IMG/VR virus record: IMGVR_UViG_3300020030_000008
Span: 1 to 6,173 of that record
From: a virus
Strand: one strand, 5' to 3'
Length of the DNA stretch: 6,173 bases
Part shown: in pieces, positions 1 through 6,173 of the stretch
Numbering within the stretch: position 1 is the stretch's first letter
Layout of the letters: every line of letters begins with the position of its first letter
Program-made: the position numbers and the translations under genes
The notes under the pieces: generated by a model
Database searches by the model: none
The model's input: the letters and a program-made list of their open reading frames with translations, nothing else
Told to the model about the DNA's origin: nothing

Positions 1-121
1 CTTATAACCTTGCGAAATATCGGCCAAATAGGCCTCGATAGACATAATTTGAGCTTGCGCCTCATGCAATCTAGCAACTTCACCTGCATCCTTAACATTG
101 TGTTGGGCAATCTGCAATTCA
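1..121. repeat. Terminal direct repeat, copy 1 (identical to 6053-6173); circular-contig overlap
   Basis: Base-by-base comparison: cttataaccttgcgaaatatcggcc...gggcaatctgcaattca occurs at both window ends with no mismatch. The repeat stops exactly at the window boundaries. Confidence 0.95.
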
Positions 122-3233: not shown

Positions 3234-4304
3234 TTAAATAATTAGTTGTAGTTTATAGTGATCTCTCCAAAACTGAAGAATATCCAGATCTAGCCAAGTA
3301 GGGGGGTCAAAATCTGGCATCTTGCAAGAAGACGCGGCGAAGCGCATTATTTGCTTTTGCTCCCACGTATACGACGCTCTACGGGATACGGCGGAATCGA
3401 GGCCGAACCGCTCAACGCACAGAGACACAATACGCTTAACCAGAGAAGACTTGCTAAAACGTGCATAAGAGTCAGCAGCGGTAATCGAGCGACAAACCTC
3501 GTCTTCCGGTTTGAGATATTTAAGATAGTATCGAGGAATCGAGTAATTGTAATTGATACGCTTCTGAAAATCATAATAAGACCACGACGAAGTACGAACA
3601 GAAGGGCGAGGCATATAACCAAGAAAATCACCAACGCCAGCAGAGACGAATTTTCGCGTATAACGGCGATGTTGGAGGAGGCAAGATAAAGGTGTAGGGT
3701 TTCCATCTATGGTAACATATTTGTCCGAAATTTCTTCGGGATTAAATTGAATCTGTTTAGTAACATACTTAACGCAGTAACGAGCACGCTTATGGGTAGC
3801 CTTCGCCAACCACACAAAACCTAGATCTCGAACGGCGGCGCGAATGGTATTGTAGAGAACGTTTGTGCCAAACAAAAAGCCATGAAAATGCAATCGAGGT
3901 TCATTTCCTGTTTCGGGATGAATGCCAAACTCCTGAAAAAAGGCGTGTTTAAACGAATGGCCTAACTTATGGCGCAGACGCTCGTTGAATCGGCGGATAA
4001 ACCAGGACGGATCAAGCAAAGCTTTGTCATAATACTTCGGAGCGATCGTTATTGTGATAAAAATAGCCTGCTGACTATTAGCTTTACAATGGGCAAGCTC
4101 GCGTTCGAGACGCACGAACCAATCATTACGCTGACGACGCAAACAATCTTCACACTTTCCGCAGGGAACCATAAGCCACTGACGGGCTATGTCCCAGGGG
4201 CGGAGAGCCAAAGCAGACTTTGCGACGTCGGAGCCGTCACGACAGGGATTCTTCTTGTCGAAATAGCGACGATTACGTATCCATATGGGCGACGAACAGG
4301 GCAT
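3234..4304 (-). CDS. VP4: Replication initiation protein, HUH rolling-circle endonuclease (Microviridae A / VP4 family), 356 aa
   Basis: Motif I-like FITITI (aa 82-87). HUH motif RLHFHGFLF (His139/His141, codon 3890-3888). Twin-tyrosine motif YCVKYVTK (Tyr176 codon 3779-3777, Tyr180), matching my recollection of the phiX174 A catalytic YxxKYxxK arrangement. N-terminal Cys cluster PCGKCEDC, as I recall it in microvirus VP4 proteins. Confidence 0.92.
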   Translation of the reverse strand: MPCSSPIWIRNRRYFDKKNPCRDGSDVAKSALALRPWDIARQWLMVPCGKCEDCLRRQRNDWFVRLERELAHCKANSQQAIFITITIAPKYYDKALLDPSWFIRRFNERLRHKLGHSFKHAFFQEFGIHPETGNEPRLHFHGFLFGTNVLYNTIRAAVRDLGFVWLAKATHKRARYCVKYVTKQIQFNPEEISDKYVTIDGNPTPLSCLLQHRRYTRKFVSAGVGDFLGYMPRPSVRTSSWSYYDFQKRINYNYSIPRYYLKYLKPEDEVCRSITAADSYARFSKSSLVKRIVSLCVERFGLDSAVSRRASYTWEQKQIMRFAASSCKMPDFDPPTWLDLDILQFWRDHYKLQLII

Positions 4305-4504
4305 TACAGAAGACTTTGAAGGCAGTCAAACTTAATGGCAGGATGATCGAAACGACAGCGAATGAGGTAATCGTTGGCAGACTCTTCGTCGGAAAACCAG
4401 GCGATAACAACTCGCTTTTTACCGCGATATGCTGCAACAGAAAAACGGTAGGGAATACTGTCGATAACGGGAGAAAAACGGGGACGAAAATCAAACTTAT
4501 CCAT
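4304..4504 (-). CDS. Hypothetical 66-aa protein overlapping the start of the Rep gene
   Basis: ATG at 4504-4502 (MDKFDFRPRF...). The track ORF begins 2 codons earlier at a GTG (4510). Its stop TAA (4306-4304) overlaps the Rep ATG (4304-4302) as TAATG. I recognise no family. Confidence 0.6.
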   Translation of the reverse strand: MDKFDFRPRFSPVIDSIPYRFSVAAYRGKKRVVIAWFSDEESANDYLIRCRFDHPAIKFDCLQSLL

Positions 4505-4748
4505 AATCACAGAAAAATACTTTGCGCTTCGAAAGGCGGTACTTTCGAGCGCGAGAACTACTTCGTTACGCCGGCCGACCGCCTAACGGCGGGGACGCTT
4601 CGCGTCTTCGGCCTCCATGGCTCCACTCCGTGGACTATATACCGGATAAATCCGGTGAGTTTGCGGACAAAAGCTCCCAAGGAGAGAAAACCTCTCCCGG
4701 GAGCATCGCAATTAAAGAACTCTTCCACCAAGAGGACGGGTGACGACC
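4505..4748 (-). promoter_or_regulatory. ORF-free, hairpin-dense intergenic region; candidate complementary-strand origin, structured RNA, or terminator/promoter hub
   Basis: On the coding strand the ATG-initiated frames I traced here are 23 and 11 codons long. Hand-checked helices: 4524-4552 (4+7 bp with one bulged t). Three-way junction ggccg 4573-4577 / cggcc 4609-4613 enclosing ccgcc-taac-ggcgg (4579-4592) and gacgc-ttc-gcgtc (4594-4606). tccac-tcc-gtgga (4622-4634). accgga-taaa-tccggt (4641-4656). Nested gctccc/ggagag-aaaac-ctctcc/gggagc (4673-4704), closed by ttgcg 4661-4665 / cgcaa 4707-4711. ctctt-ccacc-aagag (4720-4734). Confidence 0.6.
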
Positions 4749-5072
4749 TTAGTTCCTCTTCCTTTCTTTTTCCGACGGGCCTTCATCGCAATCGAGATTA
4801 AAATCAAACATGAGAACAAGAGTATTATCAAAAAAATCAACTCGGAAATGAGGGAGACTACCACAGGTAGTGACAAGTTCAAAAATTTCCGAATGATCGA
4901 CGTAAAGCGAATCGCTAATGAAAGAACTATTCAGAAAACGCGCGAAAGGAGTATCCATAAGAGCGCTGAGCGGAAGGGATACGAATTGACCATCCTTGAT
5001 GTAGCCTACCTGGGCGAGGTCAATTTTGAGAGCCGGGTTGACGCGACGAATAACAACGTGAATCTGTGTCAT
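4749..5072 (-). CDS. Hypothetical 107-aa protein (accessory, unrecognised)
   Basis: ATG at 5072-5070 (MTQIHVVIRRVNPALKIDL...) lies 11 nt after the stop of the upstream 106-aa gene; TAA at 4751-4749. The track ORF 4749..5144 starts at a TTG and would overlap the upstream gene by 61 nt, so the ATG start is preferred. The protein is net acidic with a charged C-terminal tail, DCDEGPSEKERKRN. Confidence 0.6.
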   Translation of the reverse strand: MTQIHVVIRRVNPALKIDLAQVGYIKDGQFVSLPLSALMDTPFARFLNSSFISDSLYVDHSEIFELVTTCGSLPHFRVDFFDNTLVLMFDFNLDCDEGPSEKERKRN

Positions 5073-5485: not shown

Positions 5486-6173
5486 TCAGTTTCTCCTAAA
5501 ATAACTGCGGCGAGTGTACGTGGCGCCGATTTGATCCCCAGAGGGGCCATAAACATCACGCATCTCCTCATAACCTTCGGGTCCCGCAGGACCTGCGGCC
5601 TTGCGGCCAACGTACGAGGCGCCTGCAATGCCGGCAGCGGCGGCGAAAGAACGAACGACATCATGAGCGAGACGAAGTCGAGAGTTACGCAAATCCCAAC
5701 GAGCGTTGCCTGTTTCGAGCTGAGCAGTTTCGGCAGCGGCAGTCTTCAGAATAGCCAGAGTTTCGGCCACCTTCATCGTCTTCGTCTCAACGACTTCACC
5801 CTTCTCATTGCGTATTTGGACAGGGACTTCTTTTTCCCAATTCAGTTCGAACCACTTTTGCAAATCCTTGAGCTCCTGAGCGTTGAGAGCCGTACGGGAC
5901 TCAGACTCAGCGGCGGAGGCCACATTAGCAACCGCGGAACTCCAGGCAACTGCGAGGGCAGCACCTGCTTGCGGGGCAAACCAATCATTAGACTGGCGGA
6001 GGTAGTTGTATTTTTCCTCTAGAATTCCTGTCATAGCCATAATAGAGGAAAGCTTATAACCTTGCGAAATATCGGCCAAATAGGCCTCGATAGACATAAT
6101 TTGAGCTTGCGCCTCATGCAATCTAGCAACTTCACCTGCATCCTTAACATTGTGTTGGGCAATCTGCAATTCA
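5486..6173 (-). CDS. VP2: Minor capsid / DNA pilot protein (VP2/H-like), C-terminal part; its upstream portion lies at 693-1 after circularisation
   Basis: Open frame from the window end down to TGA at 5488-5486. It is the same frame as the 693..1 segment: 693 to 118 is 576 nt, i.e. 192 codons, then 227 codons plus the stop. Predicted helical/coiled region, Ala/Gly-rich patch FAAAAGIAGASYVGRKAAGPAGPEG, and basic tail RRSYFRRN. Confidence 0.8.
   Translation of the reverse strand, partial: ELQIAQHNVKDAGEVARLHEAQAQIMSIEAYLADISQGYKLSSIMAMTGILEEKYNYLRQSNDWFAPQAGAALAVAWSSAVANVASAAESESRTALNAQELKDLQKWFELNWEKEVPVQIRNEKGEVVETKTMKVAETLAILKTAAAETAQLETGNARWDLRNSRLRLAHDVVRSFAAAAGIAGASYVGRKAAGPAGPEGYEEMRDVYGPSGDQIGATYTRRSYFRRN
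6053..6173. repeat. Terminal direct repeat, copy 2 (identical to 1-121); circular-contig overlap
   Basis: Same comparison as copy 1; the offset between copies is exactly 6052 nt. Confidence 0.95.

Follow-up and report, generated by a model that had tools for sequence, protein, structure and literature searches.

Few gut phages are more abundant than microviruses, and to our knowledge almost nothing is known about microvirus non-coding DNA beyond phiX174 and G4; we likewise know of no non-coding RNA gene described to date in Microviridae and of no report to date of transcription from the complementary strand. Among the systems closest to the locus studied here, mini-hairpin motifs have been reported at the primase origins of G4, St-1 and alpha3 and at ssiA of RSF1010 (PMC13037366). 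In the uncultured reekeekee- and roodoodoo-microviruses, single clade-bound hairpins with compensatory substitutions are conserved in intergenic regions beside the Rep gene, and their connection with minus-strand initiation is unproven (PMC9865509). The ssoA, ssoU, ssoT and ssoW cassettes of rolling-circle plasmids are structured, strand-specific and non-coding, are exchangeable across unrelated Reps and function only in a fixed orientation with respect to the displaced strand. Finally, phage accessory small RNAs are optional, compact and structured, lie between transcription units and occur as alternative "alleles" at one locus.

The locus described here carries a cluster of stable hairpins, as the G4, St-1 and alpha3 origins and RSF1010 ssiA do, with GCGNAGC, CCGNAGG and the C-GTTA-G loop of GCGTTAGC, and it shares with the three phage origins the location in a microvirus intergenic region. 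However, those origins consist of three separate hairpins, whereas our cassette is a rod with GNA/GNA loops plus a three-way junction, and it is dispensable, replaceable and, in one lineage, found on the non-packaged strand. It resembles the sso cassettes in being an exchangeable, strand-specific structured element but occurs in both orientations, and a CS-6-like TAGCGT, as in ssoA, arises only when a free loop base happens to be T and is not conserved. The hairpins of reekeekee- and roodoodoo-microviruses are the likeness nearest in position, yet our element is multi-module, exchanged between viruses, present in either orientation and strict in its loops. It matches phage accessory small RNAs in all the features listed above; unlike them, it has no identified promoter, terminator, target or Rfam family.

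The window, i.e. the whole stretch of 6,173 nt that was analysed, is a whole circular microvirus genome (6052 nt) whose minus strand carries all genes. An earlier note had pointed to 4505-4748 as an ORF-free region dense in GC-rich helices. Because a 24-aa basic ORF bounds the region on the right side and the start of a 66-aa ORF on the left side, the true non-coding gap is narrowed to 4505-4711 (207 nt); the region is ORF-free up to that point, but its remaining 37 nt (4712-4748) are the end of the conserved basic ORF. This ORF (MKARRKKKGRGTKVVTRPLGGRVL; 4712-4786, minus strand; 9 K/R) is kept in about 80 relatives, with mostly synonymous, third-base differences. Its product resembles a J/VP8-type DNA-binding protein, a putative name given from composition and position alone, and a PHROGs search with it found no match. 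The 66-aa ORF (4304-4504, minus strand) lies directly downstream of the gap, with its start codon at 4504-4502 and a stop codon overlapping the VP4 (Rep) start at 4304. It is conserved at 45-91% identity by tblastn in all relatives but two, and neither Pfam nor PHROGs gave a family match. Direct reading of the sequence finds a TATTTTTC box (4510-4517, minus strand) 5 nt upstream of its ATG, which agrees at 7/8 positions with the Bacteroidota -7 promoter box TAnnTTTG (PMC7366714) and is a putative promoter box for the 66-aa/VP4/VP1 genes; in the gap variants looked at, an equivalent TAnnTTTN box was seen by eye 3-7 nt ahead of the ATG. Frame and substitution pattern in 4505-4711 revealed no conserved protein coding on either strand, and 1-nt loop indels and variable lengths (the gap ranges from 61 to 228 nt among relatives) also speak against coding. 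The ORFs at 4522-4743(+) and 4558-4731(-) gave no Pfam match.

The dense set of GC-rich helices is confirmed: on either strand, 4505-4748 folds better than its dinucleotide shuffles, with RNA parameters (z = -4.15 on the minus strand and -6.77 on the plus strand) as well as DNA parameters (z = -5.53 and -6.43), and 0/200 shuffles were as good. A second gap of the genome, at 887-1124, folds no better than shuffles (z = -0.85). For the two modules called C and D below, the energy z taken alone is weak (-1.7 sense, -2.5 antisense), and the evidence for their structure is covariation, not folding energy. In the helices of modules B, C and D, 98.6% of cells are paired among relatives vs 24-42% in slid controls, and 11 pairs and 104 cells are changed on both sides, which 0/500 shuffles reached; these figures count cells, not independent events, in cassette families that are young and little diverged. 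Taken together, covariation in the three modules is strong.

What had been a hairpin-rich gap can now be resolved into defined parts, namely a terminator and an optional structured cassette that moves between distant microviruses. The reading that we prefer, and hold tentatively, is that the gap comprises a terminator (module T) and an accessory cassette (module B, a GTATATA box, and modules C and D), the latter likely an RNA and not a replication signal on virion DNA. Module B (4641-4656, minus strand) is a 6-bp hairpin, ACCGGA-TTTA-TCCGGT, predicted earlier and recovered here with compensatory changes: its pair 64/71 is GC (n = 33) or AU (n = 15), its pair 62/73 is CG or UA, and a further compensated change is seen in L226 (CACTGG...CCAGT). 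Other lineages have a CC-GNA-GG mini-hairpin in its place. The GTATATA box (GTATATAG; 4635-4642, minus strand) is found in three lineages and both orientations, in many relatives as the palindromic GTATATAC, and always lies 4-10 nt upstream, in the sense of the cassette, of the base at which pairing begins in module C or E, so that in every context the cassette reads away from it. The box may be a promoter -10-like element or serve some other role.

Module C (4560-4631, minus strand) is a 72-nt rod plus three-way junction, and the minimum-energy fold of its sense strand reproduces the structure deduced from 94 unique sequences. The rod is built of P1 (2 bp), a GNA/GNA 3x3 loop, P1b (2 bp), a second GNA/GNA loop and P2 (GCC/GGC, 4621/4570), which is followed by an AYGGA bulge and by P3 (6 bp, 4613/4573). 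P3 closes the junction, whose two inner hairpins are P4 (4606 to 4594, GAC-GCG-N-AGC-GTC, with a GNA triloop) and P5 (4592 to 4579, with loop GTTA). The junction closure and both hairpins had been predicted earlier; they were recovered, with compensatory changes in relatives. Double compensation is seen in P1, P1b, P3, P4 and P5, and the 94 sequences hold 2157 Watson-Crick cells, 3 G·U, 0 A·C and 2 other. P4 is GCG-N-AGC in 93/94, and the P5 loop is C-GTTA-G or C-GTTAA-G. Among the five G-N-A triplets, the ten G/A positions are invariant across the 94 sequences, with N free. L040 and L064 have lost the middle N from both strands of the P2-proximal loop, and the GNA/GNA loops are most simply read as sheared G·A pairs. 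Folding had also suggested a plus-strand hairpin at about 4617-4635, to which relatives give no support; covariation instead backs the rod (helices P1, P1b and P2) that closes the junction domain. A micro-peptide in module C (MEAEDAKRPRR) was considered and rejected, as its ATG reads ACG in 14/94 and the compensatory changes run beyond its stop codon.

Module D (4524-4552, minus strand) is the hairpin GCGC-TCGAAAG-[TACCGC]-CTTTCGA-A-GCGC. It is found together with C or E in three lineages and is near-invariant in all of them. This hairpin was recovered as predicted, the only one of the recovered helices not backed by compensatory changes; the variants at its base are sense-strand G·U only (13 cells). 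It is missing from the 173-nt gap variants. The 5-bp clamp that had been proposed at 4661-4665/4707-4711, on the other hand, did not survive the comparison, being absent in 22/48 and paired in 60.8% of cases where both sides exist.

Because the G and A of the five G-N-A triplets of module C never vary, it is one specific strand that folds. Judged from the aligned relatives, this strand of the cassette takes up a precisely conserved shape, i.e. a rod with two GNA/GNA internal loops, a three-way junction with a GNA triloop and a GTTA loop, and then an invariant hairpin. Module E, which is unrelated to C and replaces it at the same gap, points to strand specificity as well: its cells comprise 103 G·U vs 3 A·C, and two of its G·U pairs hardly vary.

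The cassette is common to three divergent microvirus lineages and is nearly unchanged among them. Nevertheless, 20 of 80 complete close relatives (25%) have neither C nor E; the terminator stands alone in 11 of the 80 and module F is present in 9, E1 is found instead in 8 and B+E2+D in 1. Relatives lacking the cassette carry no copy of C, D or E elsewhere in the genome, and no genome has more than one copy. C is also found with no D beside it, and E with neither B nor D. Near-identical B+E2+D is found in a dif-flanked prophage (L226) with distant VP4 and VP1 and also in MG945515-type viruses, and chimeric genomes are seen (e.g., L313). An nhmmer profile search over 2.07 Mb of loci found no divergent copies of C or E. 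These distributions show that the cassette is optional, swappable for E, and exchanged between distantly related gut microviruses in either orientation. Lineage 1 includes the window genome, lineage 2 L195 and L226, and lineage 3 MG945515 and L196. The cassette runs in the direction of the genes in lineages 1 and 2 but is inverted in lineage 3, in all contigs with a readable VP4/VP1 strand (about 12 distinct, with C or E2); there the DNA upstream of the cassette is the VP4 start region. These two natural orientations offer a ready-made experiment for discriminating between an RNA and a DNA reading.

Microviridae package the coding strand. Since the cassette of lineage 3 is inverted, its folding strand is never the virion ssDNA, yet the inverted copies keep the sense-strand G·U pattern (33 G·U vs 2 A·C). 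We therefore favour, with moderate confidence at most, an accessory structured RNA over a complementary-strand origin on virion DNA as the nature of the C/D cassette. A structured non-coding RNA had been among the alternatives listed in the earlier note, and it is the best-supported reading for the gap other than its terminator. The cassette lies between module T and the promoter-like box ahead of the 66-aa/VP4/VP1 genes. Its folding molecule would most likely be an RNA some 110-170 nt long, with transcription leading away from the GTATATA box in the sense of the cassette itself. Such an RNA might act in trans or as a stand-alone molecule, e.g., with its conserved purine loops binding a host or phage protein, and the cassette would be neither a leader acting in cis on the Rep mRNA nor a replication signal read on virion DNA. 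We think it most likely that its role is accessory or lies in interaction with the host. Going further, it is conceivable, though we are doubtful, that C/E plus D constitute an undescribed exchangeable family of small ncRNAs of gut Bacteroidota-type microviruses, antisense to genes in one lineage, whose GNA/GNA loops form a protein-binding or decoy surface in phage-host conflict; if so, this would be, as far as we know, the first ncRNA gene and the first complementary-strand transcription in Microviridae. More generally, an RNA nature of the cassette would mean that minimal ssDNA phages possess accessory ncRNA genes and are able to transcribe the complementary strand.

Several observations count against an RNA. 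A sigma-70 scan found no promoter within the gap, the GTATATA box, by eye, fits convincingly neither the Bacteroidota -7/-33 consensus nor TTGACA-N17-TATAAT, and nothing upstream of the box is conserved across lineages. No U-tract follows module D, which leaves the proposed RNA with no clear terminator. Only 0.14% of module C cells are G·U, fewer than an RNA usually has and in keeping with DNA hairpins, and its loops, C-GNA-G and C-GTTA-G, are the classic extra-stable DNA mini-hairpin motifs of ssDNA priming sites (PMC13037366; PMC3201870). Hairpins extruded from the supercoiled replicative form would be strand-specific and orientation-independent too. Moreover, the inverted copies may not have been long tested by selection, because the cassette families are young, little diverged and mobile between lineages.

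The DNA reading put forward in the earlier note was that of an ssDNA origin for the complementary strand. In the form considered here, modelled on G4, St-1, phiX174 and the sso cassettes, the C and D hairpins on viral ssDNA would stay free of SSB and be recognised by host primase, RNA polymerase or PriA. Part of it stands: in the window genome the folding strand is the packaged strand, the region folds well with DNA parameters (z = -5.5), and the covariation of module C is almost purely Watson-Crick. P4 (in 93/94) is exactly d(GCGNAGC) and P5 has the C-GTTA-G loop of the St-1/alpha3 mini-hairpin GCGTTAGC, GCGNAGC and GCGNNAGC being SSB-excluding mini-hairpins (PMC13037366), and the B-type variants are CCGNAGG, as in RSF1010 ssiA (PMC13037366). 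Exchange between viruses with different Rep proteins would suit a signal for host machinery, and hairpins with compensatory changes have been proposed as candidate minus-strand origins in other microviruses (PMC9865509). The comparison of relatives argues against it. A quarter of the complete close relatives have no cassette, although an unrelated origin elsewhere is possible in these genomes; in other relatives the unrelated module E, which conserves G·U pairs, is interchangeable with C; and in lineage 3 the cassette is on the non-packaged strand, where its G·U pairs are A·C mismatches on the viral strand. Nor was a conserved priming-start motif noticed in passing. We thus regard an origin as unlikely; should the cassette prove to be a DNA signal, it would reveal the way in which second-strand synthesis begins in microviruses that infect Bacteroidota. 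A different DNA reading places the hairpins on the double-stranded replicative form, extruded from supercoiled DNA just upstream of the Rep-operon promoter, where a host or phage protein would bind them, either in a regulatory capacity or because they form a hairpin promoter like those of N4. It would agree with the constant position of the cassette, in either orientation, in the gap upstream of the Rep block and beside the putative promoter, with the about equal folding of module C on both strands, and with the one-strand GNA-triloop DNA hairpins of N4 virion RNA polymerase promoters (PMC13037366). But extrusion is costly with 3x3 internal loops and conserved G·U pairs, neither of which a cruciform requires, and no candidate for a binding protein accompanies the cassette in all three lineages. 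We consider this reading quite improbable.

The mobility of the cassette raises a further explanation, that of a selfish or hitch-hiking hairpin module, GC-rich palindromic DNA recombined next to GTATATA(C) through, e.g., a Rep nick site or a hairpin-recognising transposase and having no function for the phage. The presence/absence polymorphism at a single site, the sharing of the gap by several unrelated modules (C, E1/E2/E3, F and others), the palindromic GTATATAC adjoining both orientations, the chimeric genomes such as L313 and the slight divergence of the families are all compatible with it. Against it, the cassette never exceeds one copy per genome, D does not recur as a repeat across 185,579 representative genomes of bacteria and archaea and has no plasmid match, and a transposase is absent. 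Its unpaired positions (the ten G/A, the AYGGA bulge and the D loop) are under very strong purifying selection and therefore point to a specific recognised shape, though the recogniser could be a mobility enzyme. A selfish module is accordingly improbable in our estimation, if slightly less so than extruded hairpins. Least probable of all is that the cassette acts in cis on the 66-aa/VP4/VP1 mRNA as its leader or stabiliser, whether as a structured 5' UTR or as a riboswitch-like control of Rep expression. In lineages 1 and 2 the cassette does lie directly upstream of the Rep block and in the same direction, and its three-way junction with a hairpin behind it looks like an aptamer with its expression platform, but the inversion in lineage 3 bars sense-orientation membership of the Rep-block mRNA, the -7-like promoter box is downstream of D and 3-7 nt before the ATG, C without D and E without B or D occur, and riboswitch models give no match.

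Searches against known elements agree with the earlier failure to match the region to any known ribozyme or riboswitch. Rfam scans of the window, of the region and of the module E region of L226 gave nothing near threshold; the best match in the region, DUF3800-XI, scored 14.9 bits vs a threshold of 37.8, on the antisense strand. ARAGORN found no tRNA or tmRNA. For the junction and the bulge, a hammerhead or a k-turn was discarded, as the core nucleotides misfit by eye and Rfam concurs. Mimicry of a host repeat, REP, PATE, MITE or CRISPR repeat was rejected likewise, with only chance or coding matches and no arrays: exact matches to a 20-nt D-core pattern numbered 13 in the 185,579 genomes, none with cassette context and all chance or coding in appearance. 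The L226 prophage is flanked by the dif-like AATTTAACATAATGA, but a dif/XerCD attachment site was rejected as well, since about 500 nt separate this repeat from the cassette and, at up to 3 mismatches, the window contains no match to AATTTAACATAATGA.

The first hairpin of the gap, module T (4673-4704, minus strand), differs from the cassette in its constancy and in its class. It is a bipartite GC-rich stem that had been predicted earlier, and it was recovered with compensatory changes in relatives (94% paired, 3 doubly compensated pairs, about 19% G·U cells). It begins 7 nt past the stop codon of the basic ORF, and every relative has a hairpin at this position, whatever the gap length. As read directly from the sequence, TTTT and then GT (4669-4672, minus strand) follow immediately 3' of the stem; a terminator consensus scan flags 4686 to 4674 with the tail CTTTTGTCCG, and relatives have 5-9 T within the 9 nt 3' of a stem of typically -17 to -25 kcal/mol. 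The combination of stem and T-run is found on the coding strand only. By its stem and T-run, its place after a stop codon and its conserved structure, module T is to all appearances a genuine intrinsic (Rho-independent) terminator, with a transcript predicted to end with the basic ORF, in line with the terminator part of the hub that the earlier note had offered as an alternative. It would thereby end, or attenuate, the transcript of the upstream structural genes. In Rho-independent terminators, such as those after genes in phiX174, a stop codon is likewise followed on the coding strand by a stem-loop and its T-run. In this gap only module T fits the description, modules B, C and D being without a U-tract. 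In gap variants of about 100 nt, two additional GAA-triloop hairpins lie inside the terminator loop.

The region 4505-4748, described in the earlier note as unusually structured and free of ORFs, folds far better than its dinucleotide shuffles on both strands and with both RNA and DNA parameters (z = -4.2 to -6.8). The lack of ORFs holds for 4505-4711, but the right edge codes for a conserved protein. This unannotated, very basic 24-aa protein (MKARRKKKGRGTKVVTRPLGGRVL; 4786 to 4712, minus strand) is read in a different frame from the 131-aa ORF, whose end it overlaps, and its ORF is extremely conserved in MG945455 and 80 IMG/VR relatives, with mostly synonymous differences; it is probably a J/VP8-like DNA-packaging protein. 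A conserved 66-aa ORF starts directly downstream (ATG at 4504-4502, minus strand), which leaves 207 nt (4505-4711) as the actual gap. Within these 207 nt no conserved reading frame was found: the gap ranges from 61 to 228 nt in relatives, carries 1-nt indels, and its internal ATG is not conserved.

Read on the coding strand in 80 close relatives (87-95% VP4 identity), the gap is modular, its content after the terminator hairpin T differing between genomes. T stands alone in 11 genomes (gaps of 61-82 nt), holds module F within its loop in 9 (about 100-131 nt), and is followed by module E1 in 8 (176-181 nt), by B+C in 5 and one truncated variant (173-184 nt), by B+C+D in about 45 including the window (188-209 nt), and by B+E2+D in one (228 nt). 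In genomes without C, D or E, a copy elsewhere in the same genome was not found. The minus strand of the window carries T at 4704 to 4673 with a T-run at 4672-4669, the small hairpin B at 4656 to 4641, the GTATATAG box at 4642 to 4635, C at 4631 to 4560 and the hairpin D at 4552 to 4524. Module F is a pair of C-GAA-G triloop hairpins, CARCC-GAA-GGYTG plus CCGC-GAA-GCGG, that interrupts the terminator loop and forms a three-way junction different from that of C (loci L001-L003, L020, L029, L039, L046 and L061); at locus L068 the same two hairpins sit inside a different closing stem. At locus L069 the basic and 66-aa ORFs are 593 nt apart, with an additional insert of ~390 nt after T+B+C+D in which a ~140-nt stretch is directly repeated (TTTCTCTCGTCTTATGAAGTGGTTAGATTTG...).

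All 80 close relatives carry T, a GC-rich hairpin that begins a few nucleotides past the stop codon and has a T-run; 94% of its cells are paired, about 19% as G·U, unlike C in kind. Given this pairing, the T-run and the position, T is very probably an ordinary intrinsic terminator of the standard type, which bears out one of the alternatives named in the earlier note. Conservation of the 5-bp clamp proposed there was not found across relatives.

RNAalifold predicted 41 pairs from 48 gap sequences, 12 of them with double compensation. After refinement of the B+C+D structure, pairing holds in 98.6% of 1841 cells, compared with 24-42% when partners were slid, and both sides have changed in 11 pairs (104 cells); none of 500 shuffles reached these values. 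The energy z-score of C+D alone is weak. C is a rod in which the helices P1 (AC/GT, GT/AC or GC/GC), P1b and P2 are separated by two 3x3 loops; a 5-nt bulge (AYGGA) lies between P2 and P3, and beyond P3 a three-way junction with P4 and P5 closes the far end. The earlier note had proposed this junction; covariation in relatives supports it, and the minimum-energy fold of the sense strand gives the same C structure exactly. Both internal loops are G-N-A facing G-N-A, and the P4 loop is also G-N-A. Viromes and metagenomes supplied 94 unique C sequences. Their four internal-loop triplets never vary in G or A, N can be any base, and 93 of the 94 sequences keep the G of the P4 loop; the internal loops are read as sheared G·A pairs. 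Loci L040 and L064 lack the middle N on both strands of the P2-proximal loop. The C cells of these 94 sequences comprise 2157 Watson-Crick, 3 G·U, 0 A·C and 2 others, where some columns are fixed by the search patterns and are also invariant in the VP4-retrieved set, which is unbiased for the cassette.

The cassette (B, the GTATATA box, C or E, and D) has a defined sense strand, which in the window is the coding and packaged strand, because the invariant G/A pattern of C would read T-N-C on the complement and has no counterpart there, D tolerates G·U solely in the sense-strand form (13 cells), and E, a rod of about 100 nt and 34 pairs, shows 103 G·U versus 3 A·C cells, two G·U pairs being nearly invariant.

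Pattern scans for D retrieved 90 viral and 43 metagenome contigs, many from human gut, and the cassette is carried by three lineages. It is co-directional with the genes in the window-like lineage 1 and in the temperate lineage 2 (L226/L195-like; VP4 of 320 aa and VP1 of 572 aa, both distant from those of the window), and inverted relative to the genes in lineage 3 (MG945515/L196-like; VP1 of about 662 aa). Because B+E2+D is nearly identical in the three lineages despite their distant proteins, and chimeras exist (contig L313), the cassette is, judging from these comparisons, exchanged horizontally. The inversion is found in every lineage-3 contig with a readable gene strand (about a dozen distinct, with C or E2), where the cassette lies between the VP2 stop and the VP4 start. 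Inverted copies show compensated changes (AACGGCC/GGCCGTT to AATGGCC/GGCCATT; GCC/GGC to GUC/GAC) and still show G·U rather than A·C on the sense strand (33 versus 2 cells). In all contexts a GTATATA(C) box is present 4-10 nt upstream, and the cassette reads away from it. Microviridae package the coding strand, so virion ssDNA in lineage 3 never includes the folding strand.

Contig L226 holds a microvirus prophage of about 5.8 kb between perfect 15-nt direct repeats (AATTTAACATAATGA, 1985-1999 and 7800-7814) that resemble the XerD arm of dif (TTATGTTAAAT). Judged from translations alone, one flank encodes a putative ZnuA-like binding protein and FocA-like transporter, and the other a putative HTH and a HIT-family protein. 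L195 is a free circular form of this prophage type, and in L226 a peptide similar to the 24-aa protein forms the C-terminus of a 197-aa ORF. A dif site in the window was unsupported by a site search. The 8343-nt metagenome contig L300 bears two identical E2+D copies (at about 491 and 3145, 2654 nt apart) with the same upstream and different downstream sequence, an arrangement that could come from misassembly or from a prophage that is tandem or rearranged. Further GC-rich hairpin modules occur in the same pre-VP4 gap of the lineage-3-like viruses L318 and L319-L321, and this position ahead of Rep looks like a general hotspot for them. Upstream of VP4, L318 carries GGTATATAA and, after it, a hairpin of GGAGCGGG and CCCGCTCC, and L320 and L321 have a cUUCGg hairpin.

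We tentatively favour a composite reading, in which the terminator T is joined by an accessory structured RNA cassette. The cassette would be a strand-specific, self-contained accessory element working in either orientation, most economically a small structured RNA transcribed in its own sense; the accessory element is preferred because it fits all observations. No promoter or terminator for the proposed RNA was identified. Also against an RNA, C is nearly without G·U pairs and the loop types are DNA-like, and it is possible that the hairpins are instead extruded from the supercoiled replicative form. A complementary-strand origin on the virion ssDNA, the proposal of the earlier note, is favoured by the presence of GCGNAGC, a C-GTTA-G loop and CCGNAGG, DNA mini-hairpin motifs known from the priming sites of G4, St-1 and alpha3 and from RSF1010 ssiA (PMC13037366; for the closing-pair rule, PMC3201870), by the almost purely Watson-Crick changes in C, and by an exchangeability like that of rolling-circle plasmid sso cassettes. 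Such an origin is expected on the packaged strand and to be indispensable, whereas the lineage-3 cassette is inverted and some close relatives lack it; we consider this origin unlikely.

The reading as a cis-acting Rep mRNA leader fails, both because of the inversion in lineage 3 and because of a -7-like box downstream of D. This TAnnTTTN box (4510-4517, minus strand), which in the gap variants inspected by eye precedes the ATG of the 66-aa ORF by 3-7 nt, resembles the Bacteroidota -7 promoter element (consensus from PMC7366714), and its position suggests that the Rep-operon mRNA has little or no leader. Genome, plasmid and profile searches gave no support for a host repeat or a transposable hairpin element.

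In line with the earlier note, which could match the region to no ribozyme or riboswitch core, C, D and E fit no Rfam family, and literature searches turned up no published description of them. The nearest report concerns conserved hairpins adjoining Rep in very small microviruses, proposed there as candidate minus-strand origins (PMC9865509). Structured non-coding elements in phage intergenic regions are a known kind, of which the cassette is one variant; what appears to be new is that one element combines modularity, horizontal transfer among distant microviruses, occurrence in either orientation and a rod built of G-N-A/G-N-A loops. An antisense ncRNA in Microviridae, if confirmed, would raise the interest.

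Window positions 1-121 are identical to 6053-6173, so the window represents a complete circular genome (6052 nt); many related IMG/VR contigs share this 121-nt assembly overlap. Every recognisable gene is on the minus strand, among them VP4/Rep (4304 to 3234; Pfam REP_ORF2-G2P, PHROG 942) and the major capsid protein VP1 (3230 to 1434; Phage_F, PHROG 514), and the closest GenBank records (73-82% identity across VP1/VP4) are unverified Microviridae entries from the faeces of pigs, musk deer and rodents. We infer a Bacteroidales host, because no Shine-Dalgarno-like purine run was seen upstream of the gene starts inspected, a related prophage has dif-like repeats on its flanks and chromosomal neighbours that look Bacteroidota-like, and these features agree with known Bacteroidetes microviruses (PMC3091885).

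The second gap (887-1124) as a whole folds no better than shuffles (z = -0.85); it contains a C-GNA-G triloop hairpin (GCGCTTC-GGA-GAAGCGC, 940-956, read on the minus strand). Inside and beside it, the unannotated stretch 1005-1142 shows about 88% identity to the distant microviruses bajarodmic virus 1104, bajarodmic virus 678 and MG945453, which have no other nucleotide similarity to the window, and may be a second horizontally exchanged module. This stretch includes the end of a 98-aa ORF, a possible 45-aa ORF (1102 to 965) and a terminator-like hairpin (1043 to 1026). Positions 1060-1079 resemble 4708-4727 (85% identity), where the end of the basic ORF joins the gap, which hints at a degenerate duplicate of that junction region in the second gap.
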